A stretch of DNA of 64,000 nt from an uncultured Spirochaetia bacterium (lineage in GTDB: Bacteria > Oederibacteriota > PGYV01 > Palsa-1178), in the NCBI GenBank assembly GCA_964443355.1, contig CAYUDX010000011.1:34823-98822 (forward strand), written 5' to 3'. The position numbers and the translations under genes are program-made. The notes below the pieces were generated by a model, which did not search any database, was not told where the DNA came from, and worked only from the letters and a program-made list of their open reading frames with translations. Every line of letters starts with the position of its first letter. Position 1 is the first letter of the stretch. This document shows positions 28,011-51,814 of this stretch, piece by piece.

Positions 28011-28036
28011 TCTTGCTGATCATGTTAAAATTACAT

Positions 28037-28378: not shown

Positions 28379-28435
28379 TTAGATCCTCCTGAAAATATTT
28401 TTATTCATTATAGTGCTAAAAATCATCTGAGTAAA

Positions 28436-29946: not shown

Positions 29947-29995
29947 GATCAAAGATGGATAATGGATATGAAATATCCATTATCCATCTTTGATC
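29947..29995. promoter_or_regulatory. 22-bp perfect inverted repeat with a 5-nt spacer, between glnN and amt2
   Basis: gatcaaagatggataatggata-tgaaa-tatccattatccatctttgatc; a GC-rich ggccccgggg hairpin lies ~40 nt away. Confidence 0.5.
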
Positions 29996-30105
29996 TTTGC
30001 TTTTGTAGGGGCGGCCTTATATGGCCGCCCGTTAAGCCCTATGCTTTAAAGAGCGAAAAAATCCCGGAGCGGTTCTTCACCGCCCCGGGAAACATTGGTA
30101 TAGGT

Positions 30106-32217: not shown

Positions 32218-32341
32218 AAATTTTACACTCCTTTCGGAATTTTAGGGGATATGAGTATAGATTACCGCAGTCCCTTCAACTTCGCTAACCGACTCAAACC
32301 CTCTGTTTGCCTGTAAACAGGCTTCTAGATGCTATCTAATA

Positions 32342-32357
32342 AGCAAAAAACATGCCA
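32342..32357 (-). promoter_or_regulatory. σ54 (-24/-12) promoter TGGCAT-N5-TTGCT upstream of glnN
   Basis: Minus-strand tggcatgttttttgct, GG-N10-GC spacing, ~115 nt before the glnN ATG. Confidence 0.55.
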
Positions 32358-32553
32358 GATAAAACGCTTGTGAAATATAGTGAAATCTATCTTTTGGTGG
32401 TCAAATTTGGCACAAAAAAAAGTTAGAAATGGTCAAAAGTTATACAAATTTTCAGTTTAATATTGACTTAAAGAAAGAGTATTATATAATAACCAGATGA
32501 TTAAATAATGACCAATTACGGCATGTTATATGCTTATAAATATGGAGGACAAG

Positions 32554-34653
32554 ATGAAAAAGAAAGAGGAAATATCTGCCGTTGCAGCCGCTTCACGGGG
32601 CGGTGATTACGAGAACAAGCTTAAAAAACTGAAACTTGTCCATTATATATCAATAGAAATGAATAAACCGCATTCCACAAAAGCGCTGCTAACATTGATA
32701 CTTGAACGTTGCCTTGAGCTCACAGGAGCAAAGACCGGCAGTGTCATGCTCATAAATGAGGCTGATAATCTCCTCGATATAGTCGCGTATAAGAATCTCC
32801 CGGCAAAAACAGCCGAAGCGACCAGGCTAAAGATCGGCGAAGGAATTACGGGATGGGTGGCAATGACCGGCAGCCCAAAGCTGGTCAACAACACAAGGCA
32901 GGACCCGATCTATATCAAGGTCAGGGAGGACCTATTATCCGAGCTTGCGGTCCCGATAAGGACTGAAAACAAGGTAATAGGCGTAATAAGCGTGGATTCG
33001 AACCGGGAAAACGCCTTTACAGAGGACGATCTGGACCTGTTGCTGATGGTGGCGGAACTTTCCGCTCAGATAATAACAAAGGACAAGATACAGGAAAAGT
33101 TGGGGTCCAAGATAAGCTCGCAGGAGATACTTATCGACACCTTCCATATAATAGAGGAAGAAGAGTCGCTCAACGACGTGTTTAACAAGGTAATGGAAGT
33201 ATTGAAGGACAAAATGAACATTTCCAGGGGCATGCTGGTGCTTTTTGACAAGGAGAGCCCTGATTCTCTGAAGGTTTACAGCGGCTATAAGATAAGCGAG
33301 GACTCCATTAAGAACGGGGTATATAAGATAGGCGAAGGCATAATTGGAAATGCGGTGCTAAAGGGGCAGACCATAGCCGTAGAGGACCTAACAAAAGAGC
33401 CGTTATTCCTAAACAGGCTGAAGATCCAGCGGCCGGAAAAAAACTCCATGATAGCCGCGCCCATCAAGGCGGGGCCGCGTGTCCTGGGCGTACTGTCCAT
33501 CGAAAAAATTTTTGAGGAAAAGGAATACTTTCAGGACGGTGTCCATACTATAACTATACTCGCGTCGCTGATCGCATACAGGGTAAGGAGCTTCCAGCGC
33601 CAGCAGGCCGAGACGCAGAAACTTATAACAGAAAACATCGAATTGCGCAAAGAACTGAAAAAGGACTACAGTTTCAGGAATATCGTCGGCAAGAACGAAC
33701 AGGTGCGGCGCATCATAGAGCAGATCAAAACGGTTTCCAATACCACCGCATCCGTGCTTATCACCGGGGAGACCGGCACCGGCAAGGAATTGATAGCCAA
33801 GATCGTCCATTTTTTGAGCGACAGGAGGGAAAATAAGTTCATTTCCGTCAACTGCGCGGCAATTCCTGAAAATCTCCTCGAATCAGAGTTGTTCGGATTC
33901 GAAAAAGGTGCATTTACCGGAGCGGTCGGCAACAAAAAGGGAAAATTCGAGCTGGCGGACAGGGGAACGCTGTTCCTCGACGAAATAGGAGAGATGCCTC
34001 TCCAGCTCCAGTCAAAGATACTCAGGGCCCTGCAGGAAAAAGAAATTGAGCCGCTGGGCTCCGAAAAATCCACGAAGATCGACATAAGGATAATCGCCGC
34101 CACCAATAAGGACCTGAAAAAGATGGTGGACGAGAAAAAATTCAGGGCGGACCTCTATTTCAGGCTTAATGTGATAACCGTGCACATGCCGGCTCTGCGT
34201 GAAAGGAAAGACGACCTGCCTTTGCTTGTGGATTTTTTCATAAAAAGGTATAATGAAGTATATGGTAAACAGGTGGCGGGCATTGACAGCTCCGTCGAGG
34301 ACATTTTTATGAATTATGAATGGCCGGGAAACATCAGGGAGCTTGAAAACGTCATTGAACGGGCCGTAATAATGGCCAAGGGCAGCCTTATAGACATATC
34401 GCTAATCCCGGACGCAATAAATCCGGCTAAAAACAAGGATGAAGGGTTTAATATCAAGAATTATATAAAGATTGAGTCCAGAAAGAAGGCCAGCGGCAGT
34501 ATATATAAGGAAGTGATAGGTGAGCTTGAAAAATGGCTTATCGAGGAAATGCTGGTGGATACCGGAAATAATAAGTTGAAAACCGCCCAAAAGCTTGGTA
34601 TTAATAGGAATACGCTGAAATCAAAGATGAAAGAGTACGGGATAATCCAATAA
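32554..34653 (+). CDS. σ54-dependent transcriptional activator (GAF–GAF–AAA+–HTH; NifA-like, no receiver domain)
   Basis: Two N-terminal GAF-like regions; AAA+ motifs GETGTGKELIAKIVH and ESELFGFEKGAFTGA (GAFTGA σ54-contact motif); C-terminal Fis-type HTH; GGAGG ribosome-binding site before the ATG at 32554. Confidence 0.85.
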   Translation: MKKKEEISAVAAASRGGDYENKLKKLKLVHYISIEMNKPHSTKALLTLILERCLELTGAKTGSVMLINEADNLLDIVAYKNLPAKTAEATRLKIGEGITGWVAMTGSPKLVNNTRQDPIYIKVREDLLSELAVPIRTENKVIGVISVDSNRENAFTEDDLDLLLMVAELSAQIITKDKIQEKLGSKISSQEILIDTFHIIEEEESLNDVFNKVMEVLKDKMNISRGMLVLFDKESPDSLKVYSGYKISEDSIKNGVYKIGEGIIGNAVLKGQTIAVEDLTKEPLFLNRLKIQRPEKNSMIAAPIKAGPRVLGVLSIEKIFEEKEYFQDGVHTITILASLIAYRVRSFQRQQAETQKLITENIELRKELKKDYSFRNIVGKNEQVRRIIEQIKTVSNTTASVLITGETGTGKELIAKIVHFLSDRRENKFISVNCAAIPENLLESELFGFEKGAFTGAVGNKKGKFELADRGTLFLDEIGEMPLQLQSKILRALQEKEIEPLGSEKSTKIDIRIIAATNKDLKKMVDEKKFRADLYFRLNVITVHMPALRERKDDLPLLVDFFIKRYNEVYGKQVAGIDSSVEDIFMNYEWPGNIRELENVIERAVIMAKGSLIDISLIPDAINPAKNKDEGFNIKNYIKIESRKKASGSIYKEVIGELEKWLIEEMLVDTGNNKLKTAQKLGINRNTLKSKMKEYGIIQ

Positions 34654-34695
34654 GCGCCATATAACGAAAAAAAAGGGAAAATGCGTGGAGGAAAA

Positions 34696-35586
34696 ATGAA
34701 GAAGTATAAATTTGTTTCCGTCTTATTTATTTTGATGTTATTATTTGCCGCGGCAGTATACCCGGCAAAGTCTCCGAAAGCTAAGAAAACCCCAAAACCC
34801 ACCGTTTCAAGCCTCACAAGGCAGTTAAACGAGGCAAAAGACACCATAGAAACATTATCGGCGCAAAAGGTGTCGCTTACGGCAAAAGTCAGCCAGATGG
34901 ACATTGACATGAAAAAGCTCAGGAAGGATTCGGACGCAAAATTTTACCTTGCTCTTGGCTGCGGCCTGGGGACGACAATAATATGCCTTGCCATAATAAT
35001 AATTTTGACCGGAGCAAAAAATGCGGCGGCCGGAACGACGCAAAAAAAGAAAAAATTCGCCGGGCCCGACAGGGAAAGCCATTTTGAGGAGCTTGAATAC
35101 AACGTACTGGACGACTGGCACAACATATGGTTCCATCCTGAAAAGGTGAACAACGAGCTTTATATGGACCTTGCCAACCATTTTCCTGAACTTCATGAGA
35201 AAATTGAAAAATGGAAATATGACATGGCCAAAAGGAACGACCTTGTGGACGGAATGAACAGGAACATATCGGTTAAATTCAAGGAAATAGAGGCAACCCC
35301 CTCAATATATCTGCTTGCGCTCGGGGAGAGCGAGTTTTTTATCGACGAGAACGAAATACACGTCGGGACTTTTGTATGCGCGCATGCGAAGCCGGGATAT
35401 ACGACGACAAGGGACATGATGCAGGCTTTTTATAATGAAGTGATCAAGATGATGGAGATAGATTATTCCGAGATAAAGGCCATTTCAGTGGAGATAGCGG
35501 ATTTAAAAACCGCGGTTGACATAGAGATACGGAAAATAAAGCATCACAGGAAACTGCCGGGTGATTGCAAATTTATCAGGGCATAA
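34696..35586 (+). CDS. Hypothetical membrane protein (signal/TM segments, coiled coil, unknown C-terminal domain)
   Basis: GGAGG ribosome-binding site; two hydrophobic segments; 42 nt after the σ54 activator gene. Confidence 0.5.
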   Translation: MKKYKFVSVLFILMLLFAAAVYPAKSPKAKKTPKPTVSSLTRQLNEAKDTIETLSAQKVSLTAKVSQMDIDMKKLRKDSDAKFYLALGCGLGTTIICLAIIIILTGAKNAAAGTTQKKKKFAGPDRESHFEELEYNVLDDWHNIWFHPEKVNNELYMDLANHFPELHEKIEKWKYDMAKRNDLVDGMNRNISVKFKEIEATPSIYLLALGESEFFIDENEIHVGTFVCAHAKPGYTTTRDMMQAFYNEVIKMMEIDYSEIKAISVEIADLKTAVDIEIRKIKHHRKLPGDCKFIRA

Positions 35587-36177: not shown

Positions 36178-37092
36178 ATGAAAAAAATATTGATGATCGT
36201 TTTGCTGTGCGCACCGTCGGTCTTATTCGGGGTTTCTTCGGCACCGTTTTTAAGGTTTAATTACAATGCGGCGTCCCAGGGATCGGGAGGGGCGGGGTGC
36301 GCGCGATTCGGGGATATTTCGGGGATAAGCATAAACCCGGCTTCCACCAACGGCGCAATGAACGCGTCCGCGGCGTTTTCATACGGCGACATAGGCGAGT
36401 TCGATATAAGCGCCACGCAAACGAACGTGCTTGTGCCCGTGACCGACTACGGGAATTTTGGAGCGTCATTCATATATTCGAAGCAGGGAATCGACGACCC
36501 GGCGGATCCCGGTTCAAAAATCGACCGGAACGACAGGCTTGCCCTGTTGAATTATTCTTTCATGACCGATGATTCCATCGGGTTTGGCGCAAATTTAAAA
36601 TATGCGTGGTCCGATGTGGCGGGAACAACGGCTTCTTTCCTGGCGGCGGATATCGGCGCATTGTATTTATTCGACAAGGACCTTTCTTTTGGGCTGGCGG
36701 CAAGGGATATCGGGGCATTGGTCTCGTCGGGCGGGAACGGATACGGGTTAAAAGAGGAAGGACTTGATTCTTCGGTCATGGCAGGGGTAAATTACTACAT
36801 GCTATATGATAACGAGAACAAGTTATCGTTATCCATGGACCTTGGTTTTGCGATTCCTTTCGAGCGGGCCGTAATTTCAGAGGGGATGGAATACGGTTAT
36901 AACTCATTATTCATTATAAGGGCAGGGGACTACGAGAGCGTGAGCGGCGAGAATTATTTGAGCGTGGGGCTCGGGATGGACCACGATATCGCCGGAATTA
37001 ATTTTAAATTCGATTATACTTACAGCCCAAGGATTTCCGGTTCGTCCAATTTTAGCGACGATCAATTTATTACAATAACATCAATTTTTTAA
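36178..37092 (+). CDS. Outer-membrane β-barrel protein (distant PorV/FadL-like superfamily), hypothetical
   Basis: AGGAGG ribosome-binding site, signal peptide, G-rich N-terminal ...INPAST motif, β-rich, C-terminal ...ITSIF. Confidence 0.5.
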   Translation: MKKILMIVLLCAPSVLFGVSSAPFLRFNYNAASQGSGGAGCARFGDISGISINPASTNGAMNASAAFSYGDIGEFDISATQTNVLVPVTDYGNFGASFIYSKQGIDDPADPGSKIDRNDRLALLNYSFMTDDSIGFGANLKYAWSDVAGTTASFLAADIGALYLFDKDLSFGLAARDIGALVSSGGNGYGLKEEGLDSSVMAGVNYYMLYDNENKLSLSMDLGFAIPFERAVISEGMEYGYNSLFIIRAGDYESVSGENYLSVGLGMDHDIAGINFKFDYTYSPRISGSSNFSDDQFITITSIF

Positions 37093-37211
37093 TTAATAAA
37101 AAATCTCGATGGTTTCATAGCCCTATGTTATAATCCGACCCGGGGTTCCATTTTTGCAACGTACCGCCGGACCAAACTTCGACCTCGGGTCGCTTGTGAA
37201 AATAATCTTTA

Positions 37212-37240
37212 TTGACAATTTGTTTGTTTCTGATTATAAT
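37212..37240 (+). promoter_or_regulatory. Perfect consensus σ70 promoter (TTGACA-N17-TATAAT), ~290 nt upstream of the hydrogenase–Nfn operon
   Basis: ttgaca 37212-37217, 17-nt spacer, tataat 37235-37240. Confidence 0.6.
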
Positions 37241-37529
37241 AAATTCACTAACATGAATGTTTTCAGGGATCTTTAAAATTTGACAATCAGAGAGTATTTT
37301 TAGAAGATAATTTAGAAGTATATAATGCCATATAAACCTAACCTTTTTCAATTAATAAAAAATTTTACAGTTTTCTTTTATCATCTTTCTTGTGAAAAAT
37401 TACACTAACTTTTGCGGAAAAGGAGGCAAATAACAGCATATTGGTAGCATTTGAAAAAAGCATTTATCCTGAATATGGCGAAGTTGCATATTACGGAAAA
37501 AATACAAATCATCAAAAGGGAGAAAAAGC

Positions 37530-38045
37530 ATGCCCACAGTAAAAGTGTTGCCGGCGGACGTGAAAAAGTTGGACGAGATCATCAAAGCTTATGAAAACAA
37601 GCAGGGACGGGTTCTTGGCGTCCTGGAAGAGGCGCAGAAGATAAATAAGCACAATTTTTTGCCCGAGGATACCATCAATTATATCTCCTCGAAGCTCAAT
37701 GTGCCGTTGTCGCGGCTTTATAGCATAGTTACATTTTATTCTTTTTTTAACCTCAAACCGCAGGGGGATCACACCATAATCGTATGCAGGGGAACAGCCT
37801 GTCACACAAAAGGGTCAAAATCCCTTCTGGACGATGTCGGCGGCCAGATGGGCGGCACAAAGGAACTGGAAGGCGGCGAGCCGTCTTTCACAACGCCGGA
37901 CAACAAGTTTACAATAAGGACCGTGGCCTGTTTCGGGCAATGCGCGCTGGCGCCTGTTGTGTCAATAGACGGGGTCATCCATTCTAATGTAACATCGTCG
38001 CAGCTTCGCAGGCTCGTTCAAAAAACGCAGAAGGGGAGGAAATAG
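37530..38045 (+). CDS. NuoE/HndA-like [2Fe-2S] thioredoxin-like subunit (diaphorase/bifurcating hydrogenase gamma-type)
   Basis: CRGTACHTKG...CFGQCALAPV motif; AGGGAG ribosome-binding site. Confidence 0.85.
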   Translation: MPTVKVLPADVKKLDEIIKAYENKQGRVLGVLEEAQKINKHNFLPEDTINYISSKLNVPLSRLYSIVTFYSFFNLKPQGDHTIIVCRGTACHTKGSKSLLDDVGGQMGGTKELEGGEPSFTTPDNKFTIRTVACFGQCALAPVVSIDGVIHSNVTSSQLRRLVQKTQKGRK

Positions 38046-38047
38046 AA

Positions 38048-41000
38048 ATGAAAATAAACGATATAACCGCCCTGAACAATCTCCAGAAAAAATCGCTCAA
38101 GAAACTTCTGCCCGATAAACCGATGATAGCGGTCGGAATGGGCACCTGCGGAATCGGCAACGGCGCGGACGAATTATTTATGGCCATAGGCAAGGCCATC
38201 AAGACGAAAAAAGCCGATATTATTCTCAATACCGTCGGTTGTTTCGGCTTTTGCGCCAATGAGCCCCTTGTCAATGTTTACATTCCCGGGCAGCCGCTGG
38301 TAATACTCAATAAAGTCGCAGCAAAGGACGCAACATCCATAGTAGAAGCAGTTTCAAAGGGGAATATGCCTCTGAAAAAGGCCATGTGTAAAATAGAGCA
38401 ATGGGACTTTTTGACCTCTAAGATAGAATACGGCAAAGGCCTGCCGCAGGTCCCGGTATGGGACGAGATCCCGTTCTTTAAGGGGCAGAAAAAAATGGTC
38501 CTTCGCGACGCCGGGCTAATCAATCCCGAGGATATCGAGGAATACATCGCGGTCGGAGGTTATCAGGCGCTCCTGAAATCATTGACGACAATGAAGCCGG
38601 ACGGGGTGCTCGAGGAAATGAAAAAATCAAAGCTCCGCGGACGCGGGGGCGCGGGTTTCCCGGTCGGAAGGAAATGGGAGCTCATGAAGAACGTGAAAGG
38701 CGACCAGAAATACGTTGTCTGCAACGCCGACGAGGGCGATCCGGGCGCTTACATGAACAGGAATGAGATAGAAAGCGACCCGCACGCCCTTATAGAAGGC
38801 ATGATAATAGGCGCATATGTAATGGGCGCGTCAAAGGGGATAGTTTACATAAGGGCCGAATATCCGCTTGCAGTGGAACGACTGAAAAAAGCCATCAATC
38901 AGGCCAAAGACAACGGATTTTTGGGCGAGAATATCTTCGGTTCGGGTTTTAATTTCGACCTTGATTATGTGGAAGGAGCCGGGGCGTTCGTTTGCGGAGA
39001 GGAAACCGCTCTGATGGCCTCAATAGAAGGCAAGGCCGGCAGGTCGATGCCCAGGCCGCCTTTTCCGGCCCAGAAAGGCATCGATGGTAAGCCCACCAAC
39101 ATCAATAACGTCGAAACGTGGGAAAACGTTCCCCTTATTCTCAACCGTGGCGGTGATTTTTTCGCGCAGACGGGTACGGAAAATTCATCGGGCACAAAGG
39201 TTTTTTCGCTGGTCGGGAAGATAAGGAACACCGGCCTTGTGGAACTGCCGCTCGGCACCCCGCTTGAAAAGATAATATATGAGATGGGCGAAGGCGCCGG
39301 CAAAAACAAGAAGATACGCGCCGTCCAGACCGGAGGCCCTTCCGGCGGATGCATACCGGTGGAGAGTTTCAACACTCCGGTCGATTACGAGTCATTGAAC
39401 GCGCTGGGCGCTATAATGGGTTCCGGTGGAATGGTCGTCATGGACCAGGATAACTGCATGGTGGACGTCGCCAGGTATTTCGTGGAATTCACATCCTCCG
39501 AGTCGTGCGGCAAATGCACCTCGTGCAGGGAAGGGCTTTCACAGTCCATGGAAATATTGAACAGGATAACCAAAGGCAAGGGAACGCTCGAGGATATTGA
39601 AACCCTTGAGAAACTCGCGATGGTGATAAAGGATTCTTCGCTGTGCGGGCTCGGACAGACCAGTGCGAACCCGGTTCTTACTACACTGCGTTACTTCAGG
39701 GACGAATACAAGGCGCACATCATAGAAAAAAGATGCAAAGCAGGCGTCTGCGAAAACCTCTTCATGGCGCTTTGCGAGAATTCATGCCCCATGCATATGA
39801 ACATACCCGCATACCTGCAGATGCTCAAGGAAGGCAGGATAGAGGACGCCTTTGAATCAACCCTGCGGGACAATCCGCTTCCCGGGACGCTCGGCCGCAT
39901 ATGCCACTTTCACTGCAAAATGCGCTGCAGAAGGGATACGGTCGATGAATCTGTGGCGCAGGGCGAGATACACCGTTACCTCGCGGATACCATTTATAAG
40001 ATGGGAAAGGAAAAACAGCTTTATACAAGGCTGATAAAGGAAAAACTCCCGGCGACCGGAAAGAAGATCGCCATAATAGGCGCAGGCCCGGCAGGATTGA
40101 CCGCCGCGTATTACCTGGTGCGGCTCGGACACACGGTTACGGTCTATGATTCGCATCCCCTGGCAGGCGGCATTCTTTATTACGGTATCCCGGCCTACAG
40201 GTTGCCAAAAGACGTGCTGGCCAAGGAAATCGAGCTCATAAAAAAGCTGGGCGTAAAATTCGTCATGAACACGATGGTTGGGACGGACATTTCGTTCAAG
40301 ACCATAGCAAAGGAAAACGATTCGGTTATAATTTCCGTGGGGGCGCAGAAAGACGCGTCGCTTGACATACCTGGAGCGGAGCTGAAAGGAGTCCATCCTG
40401 GATATGAATTCCTTGAGGACCACGCGAAAGGCAAGAAACTAAGGATAGGAAAAAAGGTGGCCATAATCGGCGCGGGCAATGTATCGATAGACGCGGCAAG
40501 GACCGCGCTGAGGCTCGGCTCTGAGGTCACAATAGTTTACCGCAGGGACCGCAATGAAATGCCGGCAAACCTTCATGAGATAGAGGATGCCGAGGCTGAA
40601 AAGATAAATTTCCGCCTGATGTGCGGCCCGACCAGGATACTCGGGGACGCTAAAGGGAACGTCAAAGGCCTCGAGGTTGAAAAGATGAAATTCGGCTCCA
40701 TTGACAGGTCGGGAAGGCGCAAACCCGTGGGAACGGGGGCGTGCGAAATAATCGACTGCGACACTGTCATACTCGCGGTCGGCGAGAAAGTGGATTCAAG
40801 TTTTGCCAAAGACCTGGGTATAGAGACGAACAAGGATGCGACTATCAAGACCAATCCTTTCACATACAGGACTTCAAACAGTTCTTTTTACGCGATAGGC
40901 GACGCCGTGACCGGACCGGCGACCGCGGCAGAGGCCATGGGAATAGCGAAAACAACGGCCGAAGCTGTCGACTTTGACCTTATGAAGGAACACAGGTTCT

Positions 41001-41203
41001 CCAGACTTTACAGGAAATTCGAATACAAGAACGAGGTGCCGTTGAAACCCGAAGGCGGCAGGAACACGAGGCCGAAAAAACTTGCCGTAAAGGAAAGGGT
41101 AACGAATTTTCAGGAAATACTTTCCGGCTACACGGGCGAACAGGCTCTTCGCGAATCAGTCAGGTGCCTGAGGTGCGACGTGCGCCCGGGCAACGAAGAA
41201 TAG
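38048..41203 (+). CDS. Triple-fusion flavoprotein: N-terminal HndB-like thioredoxin-like [2Fe-2S] domain, NuoF/HydB-like NADH-binding FMN 51-kDa core, and a C-terminal GltD/NfnB-like NAD(P)H:FAD oxidoreductase domain
   Basis: GMGTCGIGNG...CFGFC; GRGGAGFPVG, CNADEGDPGA, SCGKCTSCREG (NuoF); then CxxxC Fe-S motifs plus IAIIGAGPAGLTAAYYL and VAIIGAGNVSIDAA (GltD-like); 1051 aa. Confidence 0.85.
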   Translation: MKINDITALNNLQKKSLKKLLPDKPMIAVGMGTCGIGNGADELFMAIGKAIKTKKADIILNTVGCFGFCANEPLVNVYIPGQPLVILNKVAAKDATSIVEAVSKGNMPLKKAMCKIEQWDFLTSKIEYGKGLPQVPVWDEIPFFKGQKKMVLRDAGLINPEDIEEYIAVGGYQALLKSLTTMKPDGVLEEMKKSKLRGRGGAGFPVGRKWELMKNVKGDQKYVVCNADEGDPGAYMNRNEIESDPHALIEGMIIGAYVMGASKGIVYIRAEYPLAVERLKKAINQAKDNGFLGENIFGSGFNFDLDYVEGAGAFVCGEETALMASIEGKAGRSMPRPPFPAQKGIDGKPTNINNVETWENVPLILNRGGDFFAQTGTENSSGTKVFSLVGKIRNTGLVELPLGTPLEKIIYEMGEGAGKNKKIRAVQTGGPSGGCIPVESFNTPVDYESLNALGAIMGSGGMVVMDQDNCMVDVARYFVEFTSSESCGKCTSCREGLSQSMEILNRITKGKGTLEDIETLEKLAMVIKDSSLCGLGQTSANPVLTTLRYFRDEYKAHIIEKRCKAGVCENLFMALCENSCPMHMNIPAYLQMLKEGRIEDAFESTLRDNPLPGTLGRICHFHCKMRCRRDTVDESVAQGEIHRYLADTIYKMGKEKQLYTRLIKEKLPATGKKIAIIGAGPAGLTAAYYLVRLGHTVTVYDSHPLAGGILYYGIPAYRLPKDVLAKEIELIKKLGVKFVMNTMVGTDISFKTIAKENDSVIISVGAQKDASLDIPGAELKGVHPGYEFLEDHAKGKKLRIGKKVAIIGAGNVSIDAARTALRLGSEVTIVYRRDRNEMPANLHEIEDAEAEKINFRLMCGPTRILGDAKGNVKGLEVEKMKFGSIDRSGRRKPVGTGACEIIDCDTVILAVGEKVDSSFAKDLGIETNKDATIKTNPFTYRTSNSSFYAIGDAVTGPATAAEAMGIAKTTAEAVDFDLMKEHRFSRLYRKFEYKNEVPLKPEGGRNTRPKKLAVKERVTNFQEILSGYTGEQALRESVRCLRCDVRPGNEE

Positions 41204-41221
41204 TGAAAAGGAGAAAACCAA

Positions 41222-43000
41222 ATGGAGATAAAAAATCCGGTAAACGTAAAGATCAATAAAAATTCATACCAGGTCGAAAAAGGCTCCACGATACTGAAGG
41301 CATGCAGGGCGGCGGGAATAGAGATACCGACATTGTGTTTCCTCGAGGATGTTTCAAGCAACGCCTCATGCGGCATCTGCGTGGTAGAGGTAAAGAACGG
41401 CAAGTCGCTGATACGCTCGTGCATAACGGAAGTTTTTGAAAACATGGAAATATCAACGAATTCGGCAAGGGTAAGGGAAGCAAGGAAGATGAACCTCGAG
41501 CTTATCCTGGCAAACCACCCGAACGACTGCCTGAACTGCCTGCGCAACCAGAATTGCGAGCTGCAGAAGATGGCTTTTGAGCTCGGCATCAAGGAAACGC
41601 GTTTTGGAAGGACAAAAAAGCTCTCCGAGCTCGATGAAACATCGCCTTCCGTGGTAAGGGACCCGAACAAATGCATACTCTGCAAAAGATGCGTCAATGT
41701 GTGCGCGGATGTACAGACGGTTTACGCCATAGATATAACTCACAGGGGCATCAAAAGCAAAGTGACCCCGTATATGGACAAAGGGCTCGGCAACGTCGCG
41801 TGCACCAATTGCGGGCAGTGCGCCCTGGTGTGTCCGACCGGCGCCATCGTCGAAAAAGACAATACCGAAGAGGTCTGGAAAGAGCTCCAGGACCCGGAAA
41901 GAATAGTGCTTGTCCAGACGGCCCCGGCAATCAGGGTCGGCATAGGTGAAGCGATGGGCATGGAGCAGGGGGCCCTGGTAACCGGAAAAATGGTCTCAGC
42001 CCTGAGGAAACTCGGGTTTAACAAGGTATTCGACACGAATTTTACGGCCGACCTTACGATACTAGAGGAAGGGCACGAGCTTTTAAAAAGGCTCACAAAG
42101 GGCGGGACATTGCCCATGATAACATCCTGTTCGCCGGGCTGGATAAAATTTATCGAGCACTTTTTTCCGGAAGAAGTGGACCATCTCTCCACATGCAAAT
42201 CGCCGCAGCAGATGTTCGGCGCGGTAGCCAAGACCTATTACGCCGAAAAAATGCACATAGACCCGAGGAAAATATCGGTTGTATCCATAATGCCTTGCAC
42301 GGCGAAAAAGTATGAGGCAAAAAGGGGCGAGATGAAAGGCGCCTACGATTACTGGAAAGGCAGGATGAACCTTACCGAGGACGAAAAATTTTACGACGTT
42401 GATTACGTTCTCACAACAAGGGAACTTGCAAGGATGTTCACCGAGGCGGGAATACAGTTCGAATCCCTTCCCAAGGAAGAATTCGACAGCCCACTCGGGG
42501 CGTCCACCGGCGCGGCGGTGATATTCGGCGCCACAGGCGGAGTCATGGAAGCGGCGGTCAGGACGGTCTACGAAGTAGTTGTAGGCAAGCCCCTTGAAAA
42601 CCTTAATTTGATGCCGGTGAGGGGTTTTGAGGGAATAAGGGATGCCGAACTTGATCTGAACGGGACAAAGGTAAAAGTAGCTGTCGCGCACACCCTTAAA
42701 AACGCACGTAAACTTCTTGAGCAGATAGAAAAAGGCGAATCGCCCTATCATTTTATTGAGGTCATGACATGCCCCGGAGGATGCCTTGGCGGCGGCGGAC
42801 AGCCGATACCCACGACCTGGGACATCAGGAAGAAACGCGCGGAATCCATTTACGCCGAAGACAGCATGAAGGGGCTGCGCAAATCGCATGAGAACCCCGA
42901 GGTAAAGGCGCTTTATTCCGAGTTCCTGAAGGAGCCGCTCGGCCATCTTTCGCATGAGCTGCTCCATACGGAATACACAAAAAGAGGATATTTTATTTAA
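41222..43000 (+). CDS. hydA: [FeFe] hydrogenase large subunit, M3-type, with a non-canonical H-cluster L1 motif (TSCSPGW)
   Basis: N-terminal 2Fe-2S and HPNDC His-ligated 4Fe-4S domains, two ferredoxin-like CxxCxxCxxxCP motifs; L2 MPCTAKKYE; L3 EVMTCPGGCLGGGGQP; L1 reads ITSCSPGW (codons TCC TGT TCG CCG). Confidence 0.85.
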   Translation: MEIKNPVNVKINKNSYQVEKGSTILKACRAAGIEIPTLCFLEDVSSNASCGICVVEVKNGKSLIRSCITEVFENMEISTNSARVREARKMNLELILANHPNDCLNCLRNQNCELQKMAFELGIKETRFGRTKKLSELDETSPSVVRDPNKCILCKRCVNVCADVQTVYAIDITHRGIKSKVTPYMDKGLGNVACTNCGQCALVCPTGAIVEKDNTEEVWKELQDPERIVLVQTAPAIRVGIGEAMGMEQGALVTGKMVSALRKLGFNKVFDTNFTADLTILEEGHELLKRLTKGGTLPMITSCSPGWIKFIEHFFPEEVDHLSTCKSPQQMFGAVAKTYYAEKMHIDPRKISVVSIMPCTAKKYEAKRGEMKGAYDYWKGRMNLTEDEKFYDVDYVLTTRELARMFTEAGIQFESLPKEEFDSPLGASTGAAVIFGATGGVMEAAVRTVYEVVVGKPLENLNLMPVRGFEGIRDAELDLNGTKVKVAVAHTLKNARKLLEQIEKGESPYHFIEVMTCPGGCLGGGGQPIPTTWDIRKKRAESIYAEDSMKGLRKSHENPEVKALYSEFLKEPLGHLSHELLHTEYTKRGYFI

Positions 43001-43076
43001 AATGGTTTATAATAAAGACCGCCGGGATATCTGAAAAGCCCGGCGGGTTTTTAATAAACGCTGATGCGGAGAATAT

Positions 43077-43913
43077 ATGTATAAAATCACACTGAAGAAA
43101 CAGCTGACGAAGGACATCAAGCTCATGGGCGTACTCGCCCCGCATGTCGTGAAAAACGCGAAGGCCGGGAATTTTGTTATCGTGATACCAGGAGAGACCG
43201 GCGAAAGGGTCCCGCTTACCATTTATGATTGGGACTCAAAGAGCGGCGTTGTATATATCATCTTCCAGGAAGTGGGGGTTTCCACGGTAAAGCTGGGCAT
43301 GATGAACGAGGGCGATTCCGTGTATTCCATTGCGGGCCCGCTTGGCCGCCATTTCCACACCGAGAAATACGGCAATACGGTTGTCGTCGGCGGCGGCGTA
43401 GGAGTGCCGGCGATATTTCCGATAGCGAGGGCGCTTCGTTCCGAAGGCAACCGCGTGACATCCATCACGGGTTTCAGGAGCAGCGACCTTATCATCCTCG
43501 AAAAAGAAATGGGAACCGTTTCCGATAAGGTTATAACCGCCACGAACGACGGGTCAAGCGGCACAAAAGGGCTTGTGACCGATGCTCTGAAATCACTGCA
43601 TGATACCGGTGAAAAGATAGACCTGGTAGTGGCTGTGGGCCCCGTGGTCATGATGAAAGCCGTGTCCGAGCTTACAAAGCAGCTGGGGATAAAGACCATA
43701 GTTAGCCTGAACGCCCTCATGCTCGACGGGACAGGTATGTGCGGAGGCTGCAGGGTCACAATAGGCGGCAAGGTAAAATTCTCGTGCGTTGACGGCCCGG
43801 ATTTTGACGGACATCTTGTTAATTTCAACGAACTTACAAGCAGGCTCGCGACATTCAAGGCGGAAGAAAAAATATCGCTTGAGCACTGCAAAATACATCT
43901 GGCTGGCAGGTAA
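43077..43913 (+). CDS. nfnA: NfnA/SudB-like (PyrK-type) FAD/NAD-binding [2Fe-2S] subunit
   Basis: PyrK-like fold with a C-terminal CGGCRV...C motif; high similarity in pattern to NfnA (ferredoxin-NADP+ reductase α subunit). Confidence 0.8.
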   Translation: MYKITLKKQLTKDIKLMGVLAPHVVKNAKAGNFVIVIPGETGERVPLTIYDWDSKSGVVYIIFQEVGVSTVKLGMMNEGDSVYSIAGPLGRHFHTEKYGNTVVVGGGVGVPAIFPIARALRSEGNRVTSITGFRSSDLIILEKEMGTVSDKVITATNDGSSGTKGLVTDALKSLHDTGEKIDLVVAVGPVVMMKAVSELTKQLGIKTIVSLNALMLDGTGMCGGCRVTIGGKVKFSCVDGPDFDGHLVNFNELTSRLATFKAEEKISLEHCKIHLAGR

Positions 43914-43919
43914 ACAAAC

Positions 43920-45326
43920 ATGGCAAAAAAAGAACGCCTAAAAGTACGGCAGCAGGCGGCAAACGAAAGGATACGTAATTTCGAAGAAGTACCCTTCGGT
44001 TATGACGACAACGAGGCAAAACTCGAGGCGTCCCGCTGCCTTCAATGCAAGAACCCGACATGCATTCAGGGCTGTCCCGTCAATATAAACATAAAGGAAT
44101 TCATCAGTCAGATAGCCTCAGGGGACGTTGCCGGCGCTATCAAGACGATAAAAGAATCGAACAGCCTTCCGGCGGTCTGCGGAAGGGTATGCCCGCAGGA
44201 AACACAGTGCGAAGAAAAATGCGTCCTGTTAAAAACAGGGCAGGCGATCAATATCGGCGCTCTTGAGAGGTACGCAGCCGATTGGGAAGCCGCGAACATG
44301 GAAACAAAGGCACAGGTCATCACTCCGGTATTGGGCCGCGACGGCAAACAGATAAAAGTCGCGATAGCCGGCTCCGGACCGGCAGGACTGACCGTTGCCG
44401 GAGAACTTGCAAAGCTCGGTTATAAGGCGGTTATTTTTGAGGCCCTTCATCTGCCTGGAGGCGTGCTTGTATACGGCATTCCTGAATTCAGGCTGCCGAA
44501 GGCGATAGTGAAAAGGGAAGTCGATTACCTGAAAACACTCGGTGTGGAGATACAGACTGACGTACTTGTCGGGAAATCCTATACTATAGACGACCTGGTA
44601 CAGGATGGTTTTCAGGCTGTCTTTATAGGCGTAGGGGCCGGTACGCCGTCTTTTATGAACGTCCCGGGGGAAAATTTCAAAGGGGTTTATTCATCCAACG
44701 AGTTCCTTACGAGGATGAACCTTCTTAAAGCATATAAATTTCCGGAATACGACACGCCGGTCAAGCTTGGGAAAAAAGTCGCCGTGGTCGGGGCGGGAAA
44801 CGTGGCCATGGATTCGGCGCGTGTTTCCAGAAGGCTAAAGGGCGTGGAGGAGGTCCATATAATATACAGGCGTTCCGAGAAAGAAATGCCCGCCAGGCAC
44901 GAGGAGATCGAGCACGCTAAGGAAGAGGGGATAATACTGGACCTGCTTACCAATCCGGTTGAAATAATTTCCGATGAGAACGGTTTCGTATCAAAGATCA
45001 AATGCGTAAGGATGGAACTTTGCGAGCCCGACGCCTCGGGAAGATGCGGTACAAAGGCAATTCCGGGATCGGAATTCATCATGGAAGTCGACAATGTCAT
45101 CCCGGCGCTTGGGACAAAGGCCAATGAATTACTCACTACAAACGTCAAAGGCTTGAAATTAAACAAATGGGGTTACATAGAGGCAAACCCGGAGACCGGG
45201 GCTACTTCAATACCGGGAATATTCGCGGGCGGAGATATTTCAACGGGTTCGGCGACGGTTATAGCGGCAATGGGAGCCGGCAAAAAAGCCGCCGCAGCGA
45301 TCGACATTTATCTTAAGGCAAAGTAA
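43920..45326 (+). CDS. nfnB: NfnB/SudA/GltD-like NADPH-dependent oxidoreductase subunit (2×[4Fe-4S] plus FAD)
   Basis: CLQCKNPTCIQGCP...CGRVCPQETQCEEKC, IAGSGPAGLTVAGEL, VVGAGNVAMDSA; 7 nt after nfnA. Confidence 0.8.
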   Translation: MAKKERLKVRQQAANERIRNFEEVPFGYDDNEAKLEASRCLQCKNPTCIQGCPVNINIKEFISQIASGDVAGAIKTIKESNSLPAVCGRVCPQETQCEEKCVLLKTGQAINIGALERYAADWEAANMETKAQVITPVLGRDGKQIKVAIAGSGPAGLTVAGELAKLGYKAVIFEALHLPGGVLVYGIPEFRLPKAIVKREVDYLKTLGVEIQTDVLVGKSYTIDDLVQDGFQAVFIGVGAGTPSFMNVPGENFKGVYSSNEFLTRMNLLKAYKFPEYDTPVKLGKKVAVVGAGNVAMDSARVSRRLKGVEEVHIIYRRSEKEMPARHEEIEHAKEEGIILDLLTNPVEIISDENGFVSKIKCVRMELCEPDASGRCGTKAIPGSEFIMEVDNVIPALGTKANELLTTNVKGLKLNKWGYIEANPETGATSIPGIFAGGDISTGSATVIAAMGAGKKAAAAIDIYLKAK

Positions 45327-45647
45327 TTAATTAATATAGTTTGGGACAGGGACAAATCGCACTTTAACGTGTATCATATTGAAAAAGTTCAATAGATACC
45401 GACTATATCTTTATGCCCGGTATTGTCTAAAATCTTTTTTTCACAAGCAAATTGACAAATTGCTACCATTATGATATCATTTAAATGTTACCCGGTATTT
45501 TTCATTTTACTTTTAAAGAATATTATGGCGTTTTTTTTATCTTGACATAATTTGGGCTTCGCTGTATATTCTCACCAATTAAAGACTAACTTTTTACATA
45601 GTCACAGGAGAGTTCAGAGCCGCTCTCTGCCTTTAATATAAAAACAT

Positions 45648-45663
45648 GTGAAAATAATCACAT
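45648..45663. promoter_or_regulatory. TGTGA-N6-TCACA palindrome (CRP/FNR-type or Rex-type operator) ~30 nt upstream of the hnd-type operon
   Basis: aTGTGAaaataaTCACAt, centred ~35 nt upstream of the 45690 ATG. Confidence 0.45.
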
Positions 45664-45689
45664 ACTAAAATATACGGAGGTAAATGCAC

Positions 45690-46187
45690 ATGATGTTAGA
45701 AAAGCAAGAGATACAGCTTGAAAAACCGCTGCTTGATTTCATGGACCAATGGAAAGACAAGCCGGGCAATGAGATCATGGTACTGCACAAGATCCAGGAA
45801 ATATACGGGTATGTGCCGAGAAAAGTGGCAATGGAAGTGTCCAGGTTGATGGGCATACCGCTTGCGAAGATTTACGGCATTATTACATTTTATCATTTAT
45901 TCAAGCTTTCCAAACCCGGCAAGAACCAGATCCAGGTGTGCCTGGGTACGGCCTGCTATCTTAAAGGCAGCAATGACATTATACAGGAGATAGAGAATAT
46001 CCTGGGAGTCGCGGTAAATTCCACAAGCGACGATGGAATGTTTTCCCTCGAAATAGTCCGTTGCGTCGGTTGCTGCGGACTGGCTCCGGTGATGCTAGTC
46101 AACGGAAAAACCCACGGCAACGTGCTGAAAACAGACCTGCCGAAGATCCTTGGCGAATACAGCAAAAAAGAGGAGGCGCTTAAATAA
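45690..46187 (+). CDS. HndA/HydC/NuoE-like [2Fe-2S] subunit of a bifurcating [FeFe] hydrogenase
   Basis: CLGTACYLKG...CVGCCGLAPV; GGAGG ribosome-binding site. Confidence 0.85.
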   Translation: MMLEKQEIQLEKPLLDFMDQWKDKPGNEIMVLHKIQEIYGYVPRKVAMEVSRLMGIPLAKIYGIITFYHLFKLSKPGKNQIQVCLGTACYLKGSNDIIQEIENILGVAVNSTSDDGMFSLEIVRCVGCCGLAPVMLVNGKTHGNVLKTDLPKILGEYSKKEEALK

Positions 46188-46570
46188 TGGAAAAGATGAA
46201 AAAGGGCGACCTTGAAAAATTCAGGAAAAATTACAAGACAGAGCAAAAGGGAGAAGTAATGATCTCCATGGGCACCTGCGGGATAGCCGCCGGCGGCGAC
46301 GCTGTATATAAGATATTCGAGGACGAACTGAAAAGCAACGGGCTTGAGGGAAGCGTAAAGCTCAAGAAAACAGGCTGCCTGGGGATGTGCTTTTGCGAGC
46401 CCAATATGGTTGTAAAGATAAACGGCATGCCCGAGATACTTTACGGCAACGTCGACGAAAAAGCCGCCCACGCGATCGTGTCGGAACACATTATCAAGAA
46501 AAACATACTGAACAATTATGTTATATTCATGCCTTCGACGGATACCGGCAAGAATATATTCAAAGACTAG
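46187..46570 (+). CDS. HndB-like small thioredoxin-like [2Fe-2S] ferredoxin subunit
   Basis: MGTCGIAAGG...GCLGMCFCEP; homologous to the N-terminal domain of the 38048 fusion protein. Confidence 0.75.
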   Translation: MEKMKKGDLEKFRKNYKTEQKGEVMISMGTCGIAAGGDAVYKIFEDELKSNGLEGSVKLKKTGCLGMCFCEPNMVVKINGMPEILYGNVDEKAAHAIVSEHIIKKNILNNYVIFMPSTDTGKNIFKD

Positions 46571-46580
46571 GAGGCCTGCG

Positions 46581-48347
46581 ATGAATAAACAATATATTTT
46601 TGTCTGGGAGCCCGCCGCATCAAAGGACAAGCCCGTTTACAATACTTTCGTAAAGCTTGTCAATGAAAAGGGGCTGACGGATTCTTTTGAGGTTATAAGG
46701 AGCCCGTTCATAGGATTTACGACGGACGGGCCCATAGCCAGGGTTATGCCGGATGGCGTCATCTACACCAAATTCAAGGCTGAGGATGCGGACGACATTA
46801 TCAGCGCCCATATGAAGGGCGCAAGGCTAGATAAGTTCGTCCTTTCCTATGACAATAAGTTCCTGCCGATCAAGGAAAAGGATGCGACAAGCAAGCAATT
46901 TAAAATTGTCCTGAGGAACATTGGATACCTCGATCCGGAATCCATCGACGAGTACATAATGAGGGGCGGATACAAGGCCCTTGAAAAGGCGCTTTTTGAC
47001 CTCAATGAGGACAAGGTCATAGTGGAGATGAAGGCATCCGGGCTGCGCGGCAGGGGCGGCGCGGGATTCCCGACCGGCCTGAAATGGGAACTTACAAAAA
47101 AAGAAAAGAACGCGGAAAAATATGTGATATGCAATGCCGATGAAGGAGATCCGGGAGCTTATATGGACAGGAGCGTCCTTGAAGGCGACCCGCATTCCGT
47201 GATCGAGGGCATGATAATCGGCGGTTACGCGGTAGGTTGCACTCGCGGTTTTATTTACATAAGGGCGGAATATCCGCTGGCAATTGAAAGGCTTGAAAAA
47301 GCGCTGAAATCCGCAAGGGAATACGGGCTTCTCGGGAACAACATACTGGGTTCCAGTTTTTCCTTTGACATCGAGCTGCGCTGGGGCGCGGGCGCGTTCG
47401 TGTGCGGCGAAGAAACCGCCCTTATCGCGTCGATCGAGGGAAAAAGGGGAAATCCGAGGCCGCGGCCCCCATTCCCGTCGGTTTCCGGACTCTGGGGAAA
47501 ACCCACTTTTATCAATAATGTAGAGACATGGGCAAACGTTCCCGCAATAGTCGAAAGGGGCGGCGCCTGGTTCGCCTCTATCGGAACTGAAAAATCAAAG
47601 GGGACAAAAGTTTTTGCCGTGACCGGAAAGGTCACGAACCCCGGCCTCGTGGAAGTGCCCATGGGCACGACCATCAGGGAAATAGTTTATGACATTTGCG
47701 GAGGCATCCAGAACGGCAAGAAATTCAAGGCCGTGCAGACAGGCGGGCCGTCCGGAGGCGTCATACCGGAAAAATACCTGGATATGCCCATAGATTACGA
47801 ATCGCTACAATCGATAGGATCCATCATGGGATCAGGCGGCCTCATTGTAATGGATGAGGACGACTGCATGGTCGACGTCAACAAGTTCTACCTGCAGTTC
47901 TCGGTCGACGAATCGTGCGGAAAATGCTCGCCGTGCAGGATAGGCGGCAAGCAGATACTCGAATTGCTCGAAAAAATATCAAAAGGCAACGGCGACCCGG
48001 AGGACATAACGAAGATCAGGTCCATATCGATCGCAATGCAGAAGGCATCGCTTTGCGCCCTCGGCCAGACGACGCCAAACCCGGTCATTTCCGCCCTCAC
48101 TTATTTTGAGGACGAGTATATGGAGCACATTACGGACAAGAAATGCCTGACCGGGAAATGCCGCGACCTCGTTGAATACACGATAATCACGGAAAAATGC
48201 ATCGGCTGCGGGCTTTGCGCGATAAGGTGCCCCGTGAAATGCATCAGCGGAGAGAAACGCAAGCCCTATGTTATAGACAAAAAGCAGTGCATAAAATGCG
48301 GTGAATGCTACAACGTCTGCAAGTTCGACGCCGTAAAGAGAGGATGA
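46581..48347 (+). CDS. HndC/HydB/NuoF-like NAD(P)H-binding FMN flavoprotein subunit with a C-terminal 2×[4Fe-4S] ferredoxin domain
   Basis: GRGGAGFPTG, CNADEGDPGA, SCGKCSPCRIG; C-terminal CIGCGLCAIRCP...CIKCGECYNVC; AGGAGG ribosome-binding site. Confidence 0.9.
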   Translation: MNKQYIFVWEPAASKDKPVYNTFVKLVNEKGLTDSFEVIRSPFIGFTTDGPIARVMPDGVIYTKFKAEDADDIISAHMKGARLDKFVLSYDNKFLPIKEKDATSKQFKIVLRNIGYLDPESIDEYIMRGGYKALEKALFDLNEDKVIVEMKASGLRGRGGAGFPTGLKWELTKKEKNAEKYVICNADEGDPGAYMDRSVLEGDPHSVIEGMIIGGYAVGCTRGFIYIRAEYPLAIERLEKALKSAREYGLLGNNILGSSFSFDIELRWGAGAFVCGEETALIASIEGKRGNPRPRPPFPSVSGLWGKPTFINNVETWANVPAIVERGGAWFASIGTEKSKGTKVFAVTGKVTNPGLVEVPMGTTIREIVYDICGGIQNGKKFKAVQTGGPSGGVIPEKYLDMPIDYESLQSIGSIMGSGGLIVMDEDDCMVDVNKFYLQFSVDESCGKCSPCRIGGKQILELLEKISKGNGDPEDITKIRSISIAMQKASLCALGQTTPNPVISALTYFEDEYMEHITDKKCLTGKCRDLVEYTIITEKCIGCGLCAIRCPVKCISGEKRKPYVIDKKQCIKCGECYNVCKFDAVKRG

Positions 48348-48353
48348 CAAAAC

Positions 48354-51783: not shown

Positions 51784-51814
51784 CCGTAATCCATCAACAT
51801 GAATGGGGCCAATA

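Follow-up and report, generated by a model that had tools for sequence, protein, structure and literature searches.

Introduction

The bifurcating enzymes of the Bfu family have been described as variations on an invariant BfuBC core, differing in BfuA and in the extra subunits that they recruit. Cryo-electron microscopy has located their bifurcating site in a flavobicluster composed of flavin mononucleotide (FMN) and the iron-sulfur clusters B1 and C1, and has placed two further clusters, B3 and B4, in a loosely attached C-terminal ferredoxin-like domain that forms the route to ferredoxin (PMC12018979, PMC11829005). Such work has also defined a zinc site, B2, made up of three Cys and one His, the His being absent from non-bifurcating homologues (PMC12018979). 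Here we describe an operon in which BfuB itself is remodelled, at the exact domain that delivers low-potential electrons to ferredoxin, and which offers a natural experiment on the two-branch gating of the flavobicluster. The operon lies on a 64-kb stretch of DNA from an uncultured Spirochaetia bacterium (GenBank assembly GCA_964443355.1, contig CAYUDX010000011.1; the whole stretch is hereafter called the window). It encodes a NuoE-like HydC, a fused HydB and the [FeFe] hydrogenase HydA1, which together we call the trio, followed by NfnA and NfnB. We consider it very likely that the trio is the unit, that a module binding nicotinamide adenine dinucleotide phosphate (NADPH) replaces the ferredoxin domain of HydB, and that NfnAB is not a subunit.

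With the HydABC enzymes (FeFe-Bfu Type 1; A. woodii, T. kivui and T. maritima) the trio shares its three subunit families, the FMN site, B1, the zinc hinge, B5, C1 and the TSCSPGW motif of the catalytic subunit. Their HydB, however, has a ferredoxin domain with the two [4Fe-4S] clusters B3 and B4, in place of which the fusion has a module of ~480 aa predicted to bind flavin adenine dinucleotide (FAD) and NADPH. The nearest BfuB core is that of the Stn and Nfn-Bfu enzymes (S. ovata, 8OH5; C. saccharolyticus, 9BOV; T. sibiricus, 9N5U), which possess the same permuted module down to the C-terminal RCLxC. There the module resides in BfuA, having taken the place of the hydrogenase domain, and BfuB, with B3/B4 still present, is the subunit that reduces ferredoxin; in the trio, BfuA is a true hydrogenase with the motifs L1-L3, and it is BfuB that carries the module, in place of B3/B4.

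The closest published precedent is a partial one. In the archaeal hybrid [FeFe]/[NiFe] group F hydrogenases, a HydB with a "glutamate synthase (GltA) domain" has been modelled on 7E5Z_B and 7MFM_I (Greening et al. 2024, PMC11216029). As described, this protein too joins a NuoF-like diaphorase to a domain of the GltD type and is encoded in a hydrogenase cluster. The archaeal complex is encoded by five genes and includes a HydA-HyhS fusion, HyhL and HydD; ferredoxin was guessed to be the acceptor at the domain. An earlier prediction for the window, made from its sequence, had held the architecture to be undescribed. This stands as far as biochemistry of the bacterial enzyme is concerned: the openly searchable full-text literature (subscription-only articles were outside its scope) yielded no study, biochemical or structural, that deals with the bacterial trimer, and the fusion is not mentioned in Losey 2020, Schut 2022, Hydrogenedentota 2024, or the I. 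album and Stn papers. It needs qualifying for the domain combination as such, in view of the archaeal model. The resemblance to HydABC, Stn and GltD-linked hydrogenases that the same prediction had noted is real.

Organization of the locus

The locus comprises five open reading frames (ORFs), all on the + strand:

37530-38045, + strand: hydC/bfuC (171 aa), NuoE-like, thioredoxin-like [2Fe-2S] subunit carrying C1; PF01257 match of 135 bits
38048-41203, + strand: hydB fusion (1051 aa), BfuB core plus a predicted permuted NfnL/GltD-type FAD-NADPH module
41222-43000, + strand: hydA1 (592 aa), catalytic subunit (BfuA) of an M3-type [FeFe] hydrogenase; L1 motif TSCSPGW
43077-43913, + strand: nfnA (278 aa), NfnA/NfnS; PRK06222 match of 376 bits (cutoff 220)
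43920-45326, + strand: nfnB (468 aa), canonical, non-permuted NfnB/NfnL; TIGR01316 match of 554 bits (cutoff 472)

The coordinates of these ORFs and the intergenic gaps of 2, 18, 76 and 6 nt agree exactly with the original prediction, which as a whole was supported in part, and its domain assignments for all five products were borne out by Pfam and NCBIfam searches. That prediction had named in advance one explanation that would speak against it, namely that the fusion arose from an assembly frameshift. An identical 1051-aa ORF is, however, present on contigs of four assemblies made independently of one another (two each from JGI and ENA). A database search for the fusion, moreover, returned more than 120 clusters of full-length homologues (~1045-1060 aa, 63-100% identity), and a relative is encoded in at least 385 species-representative genomes. 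Since the same ORF recurs in independent assemblies and full-length homologues number in the hundreds, an assembly or frameshift artefact is excluded and the fusion protein is genuine.

Domain architecture of the HydB fusion

The fused subunit can be divided into the following regions:

38048-38437, + strand: HydB residues 1-130, HndB-type thioredoxin-like domain with the B5 site (C34, C65, C69, C114)
38495-39727, + strand: HydB residues 150-560, NuoF core with the site GRGGAGFP for FMN and nicotinamide adenine dinucleotide, NAD(H), and the B1 [4Fe-4S] cluster (C487, C490, C493, C533)
39716-39751, + strand: HydB residues 557-568, zinc B2 hinge H557-x5-C563-x4-C568, with C470
39773-39928, + strand: HydB residues 576-627, first part of the Fer4_20 region, with C576, C580, C619, C623 and C627, for two [4Fe-4S] clusters
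40055-40987, + strand: HydB residues 670-980, Rossmann domains with the FAD motif GAGPAG (678-683) and the NADP(H) motif GAGNVxxDxAR...YRR (808-833)
41075-41182, + strand: HydB residues 1010-1045, circularly permuted tail (ERVTNFQEI...RESVRCLRCDV) with C1040 and C1043

Pfam places Complex1_51K at residues 192-362, NADH_4Fe-4S at 473-557, Fer4_20 at 561-652 and Pyr_redox_2 at 673-965. Over the whole of residues 26-573 the fusion can be aligned to B subunits from solved Bfu enzymes, with scores of 682 bits to T. sibiricus NfnB (9n5u_B), 646 bits to A. mobile NiFe-HydB, 619 bits to C. saccharolyticus NfnB and 605 bits to A. woodii HydB. The N-terminal ~120 aa are 30% identical to the stand-alone HndB of the window (E 4e-12) and can also be aligned to the N-terminal domain that solved BfuB subunits possess (T. 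sibiricus NfnB). Residue conservation was scored over 118 homologues: three of the B5 cysteines are invariant and C114 is kept in 117 sequences, and GRGGAGFP and the B1 cysteines are invariant. The same is true of the zinc-hinge residues C470, H557, C563 and C568, which align to C437, H524, C529 and C534 of T. sibiricus NfnB.

This relationship does not extend further. Homology to the BfuB chains and to NuoF2, the corresponding subunit of a second hydrogenase operon in the window, stops at residue ~573, where the Fer4_20 and Pyr_redox_2 regions begin; the identity of 51% between fusion and NuoF2 extends as far as residue 572, beyond which the two proteins diverge. No Fer4 dicluster was matched by Pfam in the fusion, whereas NuoF2 has one. 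The claim that a GltD/NfnB-type module stands in place of the ferredoxin-type domain is confirmed by this comparison. HydB has thus lost the C-terminal ferredoxin-like domain with B3/B4 while keeping FMN, B1, the zinc hinge and B5.

The module that follows starts seven residues past the zinc hinge. Its residues 576-1044 align to residues 104-567 of 9bov_A (Nfn-BfuA, 349 bits) and 104-568 of 8oh5_C (StnC), as compared with a score of 181 bits to GltD and an identity of just 34% to the NfnB encoded in the window. The Fer4_20 match (76 bits) covers the beginning of this alignment, from about residue 104 of Nfn-BfuA and StnC, and the cysteines of the region are invariant. The Pyr_redox_2 match amounts to 135 bits, and the nucleotide domain aligns to the NADPH-binding modules of 9bov_A, 9n5u_A, 8oh5_C and 5jca_L with the YRR retained. 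Both the FAD motif GxGxxG and GAGNVxxDxAR...YRR are conserved among the homologues and are common to structurally established NADPH binders.

The last ~35 residues (1012-1045) have their counterpart at the N-terminus of canonical NfnB, where they align to positions 14-47 in 5jca_L and 10-43 in the NfnB of the window. The module is therefore circularly permuted in the manner of Stn and Nfn-BfuA, with the CxxC-bearing N-terminal segment of NfnB moved to the C-terminal end. C1040 is found in 118/118 homologues and C1043 in 117/118; together with C576, C580, C619, C623 and C627, these (near-)invariant residues reproduce the seven-cysteine pattern of two NfnB-type [4Fe-4S] clusters.

An AlphaFold2 (AF2) model of the single chain has a predicted local distance difference test score (pLDDT) of 82.4 and a predicted template-modelling score (pTM) of 0.62. 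In this model the tail is folded, and its helix 1030-1039 has a pLDDT of ~80. Foldseek superimposed the model onto BfuB chains with template-modelling (TM) scores of 0.85-0.94 and onto P. furiosus NfnI-L with a root mean square deviation of 2.0 Å over 424 columns; it found no solved chain that spans both halves of the fusion (TMq ≤0.50).

HydA1 and HydC

The partners of the fusion are those expected of a Bfu enzyme. HydA1 contains Fer2_4, His-ligated 4Fe-4S, 2x4Fe-4S, H-cluster and small-subunit (SSU) domains, and the motifs L1, L2 and L3 and the cluster cysteines are all present. It scores 883 bits in NF040763 (cutoff 765) and 531 in TIGR02512 (cutoff 406), passing both the group A and the "A6" cut-offs. 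Among solved proteins it comes closest to the HydA1 of A. woodii (629 bits) and that of T. kivui (610 bits), with CpI at ~450 bits. The original prediction had singled out HydA1 as a variant of the M3 type. The type was correct; the variation, TSCSPGW where TSCCPxW is usual, is identical to the motif of the structurally characterised bifurcating HydA1 of A. woodii. TSCSP also occurs in all 68 HydA genes downstream of fusions (68/68) and in other HydAs of these loci, and we no longer regard it as a special feature. HydC has its best solved matches among HydC/NfnC chains (T. maritima HydC, NiFe-HydC and T. kivui HydC) and contains the four C1 cysteines (CRGTAC...CFGQC).

Distribution and the conserved unit

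To compare neighbourhoods, 80 loci were fetched; loci of relatives are labelled L001 and so on, and protein clusters P0128 and so on. The order NuoE-fusion-HydA is complete in 74/80 loci, and the other six all end at contig edges; hydC is upstream of the fusion in 74/80. The trio recurs even at 48% identity, in L088. No further conserved neighbour, extra subunit or ferredoxin gene was found near the trio in the 80 loci. The conserved functional unit is the trimer HydC-HydB(fusion)-HydA.

Carriers belong mainly to Bacteroidota (Paludibacter, Bacteroidales bacterium CF), Ignavibacteriota, candidate division FCPU426, Spirochaetota and Kryptoniota. The nearest relatives of the window are metagenome-assembled genomes (MAGs) labelled FCPU426 or "uncultured Spirochaetia" (L001, 93% identity), and the carriers include many abundant MAGs of Paludibacter, Bacteroidales and Ignavibacteriota that come from peat, fens, wetland and anaerobic digesters.

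In nine Bacteroidales/Paludibacter loci (L044, L050, L052, L056, L057, L070, L076, L078 and L080) the fusion operon adjoins another trimeric hydrogenase, at about 3.4-7.5 kb in each or, in L052, downstream. The NuoF match in these neighbouring enzymes spans just ~370-430 aa, and they may be of the non-bifurcating type without extra clusters. Their HydA, 52-53% identical to HydA1, has TSCSP too.

Proposed mechanism and alternatives

Sequence and structural homology to the solved enzymes show that the trio is a heterotrimeric [FeFe] hydrogenase of the Bfu/HydABC type which retains the core and bears a module with NADPH site, FAD and two [4Fe-4S] clusters at the position of the ferredoxin domain. 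The branch that leads from C1 through B3/B4 to ferredoxin would here run through the clusters of the module to FAD and NADP(H). The coupled reaction that we propose is 2 H2 + NAD+ + NADP+ <-> NADH + NADPH + 2 H+, which would proceed without ferredoxin. Our confidence in this explanation as a whole, including ferredoxin-independent coupling of NAD(H) and NADP(H), is evenly poised.

Physiological potentials are about -280 mV for NAD(H) and about -380 mV for NADP(H) (PMC9304861, Table 1). The H2 equilibrium pressures calculated from these values are ~145 Pa for coupled NADH+NADPH, ~3 Pa for NADH alone and ~7 kPa for NADPH alone. Because the calculated ceiling of the coupled reaction is ~145 Pa, the enzyme would in low-H2 habitats most likely run as an H2 producer confurcating NADH and NADPH. 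If NADP(H) does replace ferredoxin, the enzyme would let fermenters dispose of NADH and NADPH in the form of H2 at a ~50-fold higher H2 pressure than with NADH alone, and this venting would cost no reduced ferredoxin. That the trio is specifically the first representative of a ferredoxin-independent Bfu-type hydrogenase, either confurcating NADH and NADPH or bifurcating H2 onto NAD+ and NADP+, we put forward tentatively, with our confidence somewhat on the lower side of even.

Several points weigh against this proposal. The nucleotide specificity, stoichiometry and energy coupling of the trimer are deduced from homology. By analogy with NfnB, the distal [4Fe-4S] cluster of the module could dock ferredoxin, and ferredoxin has been suggested as the acceptor at the analogous domain of the archaeal HydB (PMC11216029). 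Finally, the AF2 model is of a single chain without cofactors and has a low pTM, and it does not place the clusters of the module relative to C1, B1 and FMN.

The alternative that survives best, which we nevertheless regard as unlikely, is an uncoupled NAD(P)H hydrogenase of dual specificity. Here FMN would take NADH and FAD would take NADPH, each on its own feeding or draining one iron-sulfur wire to the H-cluster, with neither confurcation nor bifurcation. Non-bifurcating NADH-dependent HydAB(C) enzymes do exist (PMC7311640), the homologous FAD in Stn/Nfn-Bfu and GltD is a simple entry point on one iron-sulfur path (PMC12018979), and the canonical low-potential exit has gone with the B3/B4 domain. 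Yet the fusion keeps the zinc-hinge His and the B5 domain, both reported to be absent from non-bifurcating homologues, and its core is closest overall to BfuB subunits that are proven to bifurcate. The invariance of these Bfu features over the homologues scored argues that a gated mechanism is still under selection. Retention of such Bfu-specific features would thus favour coupling by a gated mechanism rather than two dehydrogenase sites that act independently.

Less probable again, and in our view distinctly improbable, is a trimer working with four substrates, in which the module would retain an NfnB-like ferredoxin site, possibly with a bifurcating FAD, and link H2, NAD(H), NADP(H) and ferredoxin. 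In its favour, NfnB/NfnL, whose distal cluster reduces ferredoxin, are homologues of the module and have the same seven-cysteine pattern; the acceptor proposed for the archaeal enzyme would fit as well. What speaks against such a trimer is that the module belongs to the permuted StnC/Nfn-BfuA type, which has a non-bifurcating FAD and clusters that serve solely as a wire to the core, and that the trio has no conserved NfnA-like [2Fe-2S]/FAD partner.

Relation of NfnAB to the trio

The original prediction had further proposed that all five products form one hydrogenase-transhydrogenase super-complex, with four pyridine-nucleotide sites, connecting H2 to NAD(H), NADP(H) and ferredoxin. The following features of the window bear on its genetic context:

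43005-43059, + strand: GC-rich hairpin followed by GUUUUUAAU, intrinsic terminator- or attenuator-like (-25 kcal/mol)
45684-50126, + strand: second, HndABCD-type [FeFe] hydrogenase operon, encoding NuoE (167 aa), HndB (127 aa), NuoF2 and HydA (590 aa)
50305-55752, + strand: H-cluster maturation genes hydG (Radical_SAM+BATS), an aspartase-like lyase (Lyase_1), hydF (HydF_dimer/tetramer) and hydE (Radical_SAM)

NfnA and NfnB both match solved NfnA/NfnS and NfnB/NfnL proteins over their full length, as expected of the complete pair that had been claimed. NfnA scores 310 bits to the small subunit of P. furiosus NfnI (5jca_S) and 246 bits to 4ylf_A and has the motif DGTGMCGGCRV...FSCVDGP, in keeping with a PyrK-like FAD/NAD protein that has an Asp+3Cys [2Fe-2S] cluster; NfnB, the predicted partner with 2x[4Fe-4S], FAD and NADPH, scores 550 bits over its full length to T. 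maritima NfnB (4ylf_B). Their position next to the trio, by contrast, is exceptional. With at least 2.4 kb of downstream sequence required, the presence of nfnAB could be tested in 64 loci, and the genes follow the trio in just two of these, L001 (93% identity) and L004 (80%). They do not do so in the close relatives L002 and L003 (80-85% identity), nor in L088; in L003 the second hydrogenase operon directly follows the trio. Between hydA1 and nfnA, moreover, stands the hairpin, which ends in the U-run GUUUUU, has a z score of -3.46 and was matched in stability by none of 200 shuffled sequences (0/200). Hairpins are present at the equivalent position 3' of hydA1 in all of L001-L004, whether or not nfnAB is there.

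These observations leave the five-subunit super-complex without support, and we consider it very improbable. Its five genes share a strand and are separated by short gaps, and their order is kept in L001 and L004. Set against this are the 62/64 testable loci without nfnAB after the trio, the terminator-like hairpin, and the nature of NfnA and NfnB as full-length, canonical orthologues of a self-sufficient heterodimer. Where NfnAB is present, furthermore, the trio shows no lineage-specific additions, being of the same length and 80-93% identical. Genes 4 and 5 are accordingly best read from their sequences as encoding a separate canonical NfnAB, predicted to be self-sufficient, and a lineage-specific neighbour of the trio.

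The case for such a separation is not free of counterweights. No promoter is evident in the 26 nt from hairpin to nfnA, so that read-through co-transcription is possible, and nfnAB may be expressed in this way from the hyd promoter and co-expressed with the trio in this lineage. Co-transcription would not, however, imply a complex. GC content and GC content at third codon positions (GC3) are uniform over the island; the nfnAB insertion is not recent, and a recent horizontal insertion, which we considered on grounds of composition, is unsupported.

We conclude that the region is a redox-balancing gene island beside hydGFE, made up of hydrogenase 1, NfnAB and hydrogenase 2, and not a single complex. 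NfnAB could link the NAD(H)/NADP(H) pools of hydrogenase 1 to the ferredoxin pool of hydrogenase 2. Adjacency of nfn genes to a multimeric [FeFe] hydrogenase is known from C. autoethanogenum (PMC6405883). The position of NfnAB is the least general part of the locus; the notable object is the three-gene hydrogenase with its rewired HydB.

The idea behind HydDB group A2, that a GltD module might pass H2-derived electrons straight to glutamate synthase, is scarcely credible here and was dropped: HydDB describes A2 as possibly supplying reductant to that enzyme, and GltB/GltD (16577-22548) and other nitrogen-assimilation genes lie nearby (gltBD, glutamine synthetase and amt, 15-20 kb upstream), yet the window has its own canonical GltD beside GltB, no gltB is conserved near the trio in the 80 loci, and the module is of the permuted Stn type, scoring far higher to Nfn-BfuA than to GltD.

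Classification and related fusions

The trio falls between existing categories. HydDB inspects the protein encoded downstream of HydA and assigns A2 to a partner with "GltD but not NuoF" and A3 to a NuoF partner. Group A2 thus also combines a GltD-type NAD(P)H-FAD protein with a group A HydA, but demands a partner without NuoF, whereas the HydB fusion has both NuoF and GltD. By the stated rule HydA1 is A3 from its NuoF partner and does not qualify as A2. If only the downstream NfnA is supplied, it becomes A1 (ferredoxin-only), the NuoE and NuoF partners being encoded upstream. The wording of the A2 rule is at least compatible with partner proteins bearing both domains having been met before.

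Current schemes, that is, the HydDB rules and labels such as "NuoF" or "FAD-dependent oxidoreductase", would file the enzyme as an NADH+ferredoxin A3 hydrogenase or even as A1, and community models of H2 and redox metabolism may mis-assign the electron carriers of the trio. The survey of the Bfu family, which stressed the invariant BfuBC core, required four InterPro domains of a BfuB, one of them a ferredoxin-type 4Fe-4S domain (IPR017896). Among the features of the family, the trio has C1 in BfuC, FMN and B1, zinc B2 and the B5 cysteines in BfuB, and A1/A2 and the catalytic domain in BfuA, and lacks B3/B4 (IPR017896). Because the fusion shows no Fer4-type match and the survey demanded that domain, it probably did not sample the fusion family.

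The fused diaphorase is also found outside the trio. About 12 further clusters of NuoF-GltD proteins exist at 50% identity (PRK12771-like), in addition to NADH_4Fe-4S-GltD proteins of ~650 aa. Like HydB, the other NuoF-GltD proteins have the order Complex1_51K, NADH_4Fe-4S, Fer4_20, Pyr_redox_2 and permuted tail; some differ in having no N-terminal B5 domain and some in an added C-terminal Fer4 dicluster (P0166, P0216). Among the distant fusions (33-39% identity), that of L086 (5001-8117, P0166) is partnered by a Mo-pterin formate dehydrogenase-like protein and a Fer4 protein, that of L085 (312-3482, P0128, and the P0132 context) by a response regulator and a histidine kinase, and L090 (5001-12686, P0148) has tandem NuoE-fusion pairs followed by a BfuA-like gene. 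Because distant fusions are paired with a formate dehydrogenase-like enzyme and two-component regulators and occur as tandem copies, the fused diaphorase is a reusable module, of which the hydrogenase trio (at least 385 species genomes) was the best-sampled association in this analysis.

Regulation and genomic surroundings

Two elements precede the trio:

37195-37207, + strand: 13-mer TGTGAAAATAATC, 5 nt upstream of the -35 hexamer; second copy at 45647-45659
37212-37240, + strand: sigma-70-type promoter-like site TTGACA-17-TATAAT, a 12/12 match to the consensus, ~290 nt upstream of hydC

The 13-mer occurs exactly twice in the 64 kb, before each hydrogenase operon (0.07 copies expected; 0/100 shuffled sequences with two or more), and is also found upstream of the trio in L001. 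Its second copy belongs to the palindrome TGTGAAAATAATCACA before operon 2 (45647-45662), where there is also one perfect TGTGA-N6-TCACA, by itself not significant. This distribution suggests that the 13-mer is a candidate shared operator, resembling a Rex/CRP half-site, through which both hydrogenase operons would be regulated in common. In C. autoethanogenum, nfn and hydrogenase genes are likewise clustered and apparently form one redox regulon (PMC6405883). In that organism, however, one fused nfn gene lies downstream of rex, and no rex gene was found in the window. The ~290-nt AT-rich leader of hydC (37240-37529) has no Rfam match.

In the second operon, NuoF2 ends in the C-terminal 2x[4Fe-4S] domain, and HydA2, with the motif TSCCPAW, is 48% identical to HydA1; a canonical terminator follows hydA2. 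Gene callers place the start of NuoF2 at 46581 (588 aa), not at the longest-ORF start, 46518.

Upstream of the trio, at 10365-16366, lies a 1586-aa ORF with a weak Big_1 (bacterial Ig-like) domain, then a 414-aa ORF without a family match, both seemingly unrelated. Between a sigma-54 activator gene and the hydrogenase promoter are two ORFs of ~300 aa without a Pfam match (34681-35586 and 36178-37092). That activator, which has two GAF domains, belongs to a nitrogen-assimilation cluster (16577-34653) with no conserved linkage to the trio in other genomes; its other products are GltB (1515 aa), GltD (473 aa), two Amt transporters, an amino-acid permease-PII fusion and a type III glutamine synthetase.

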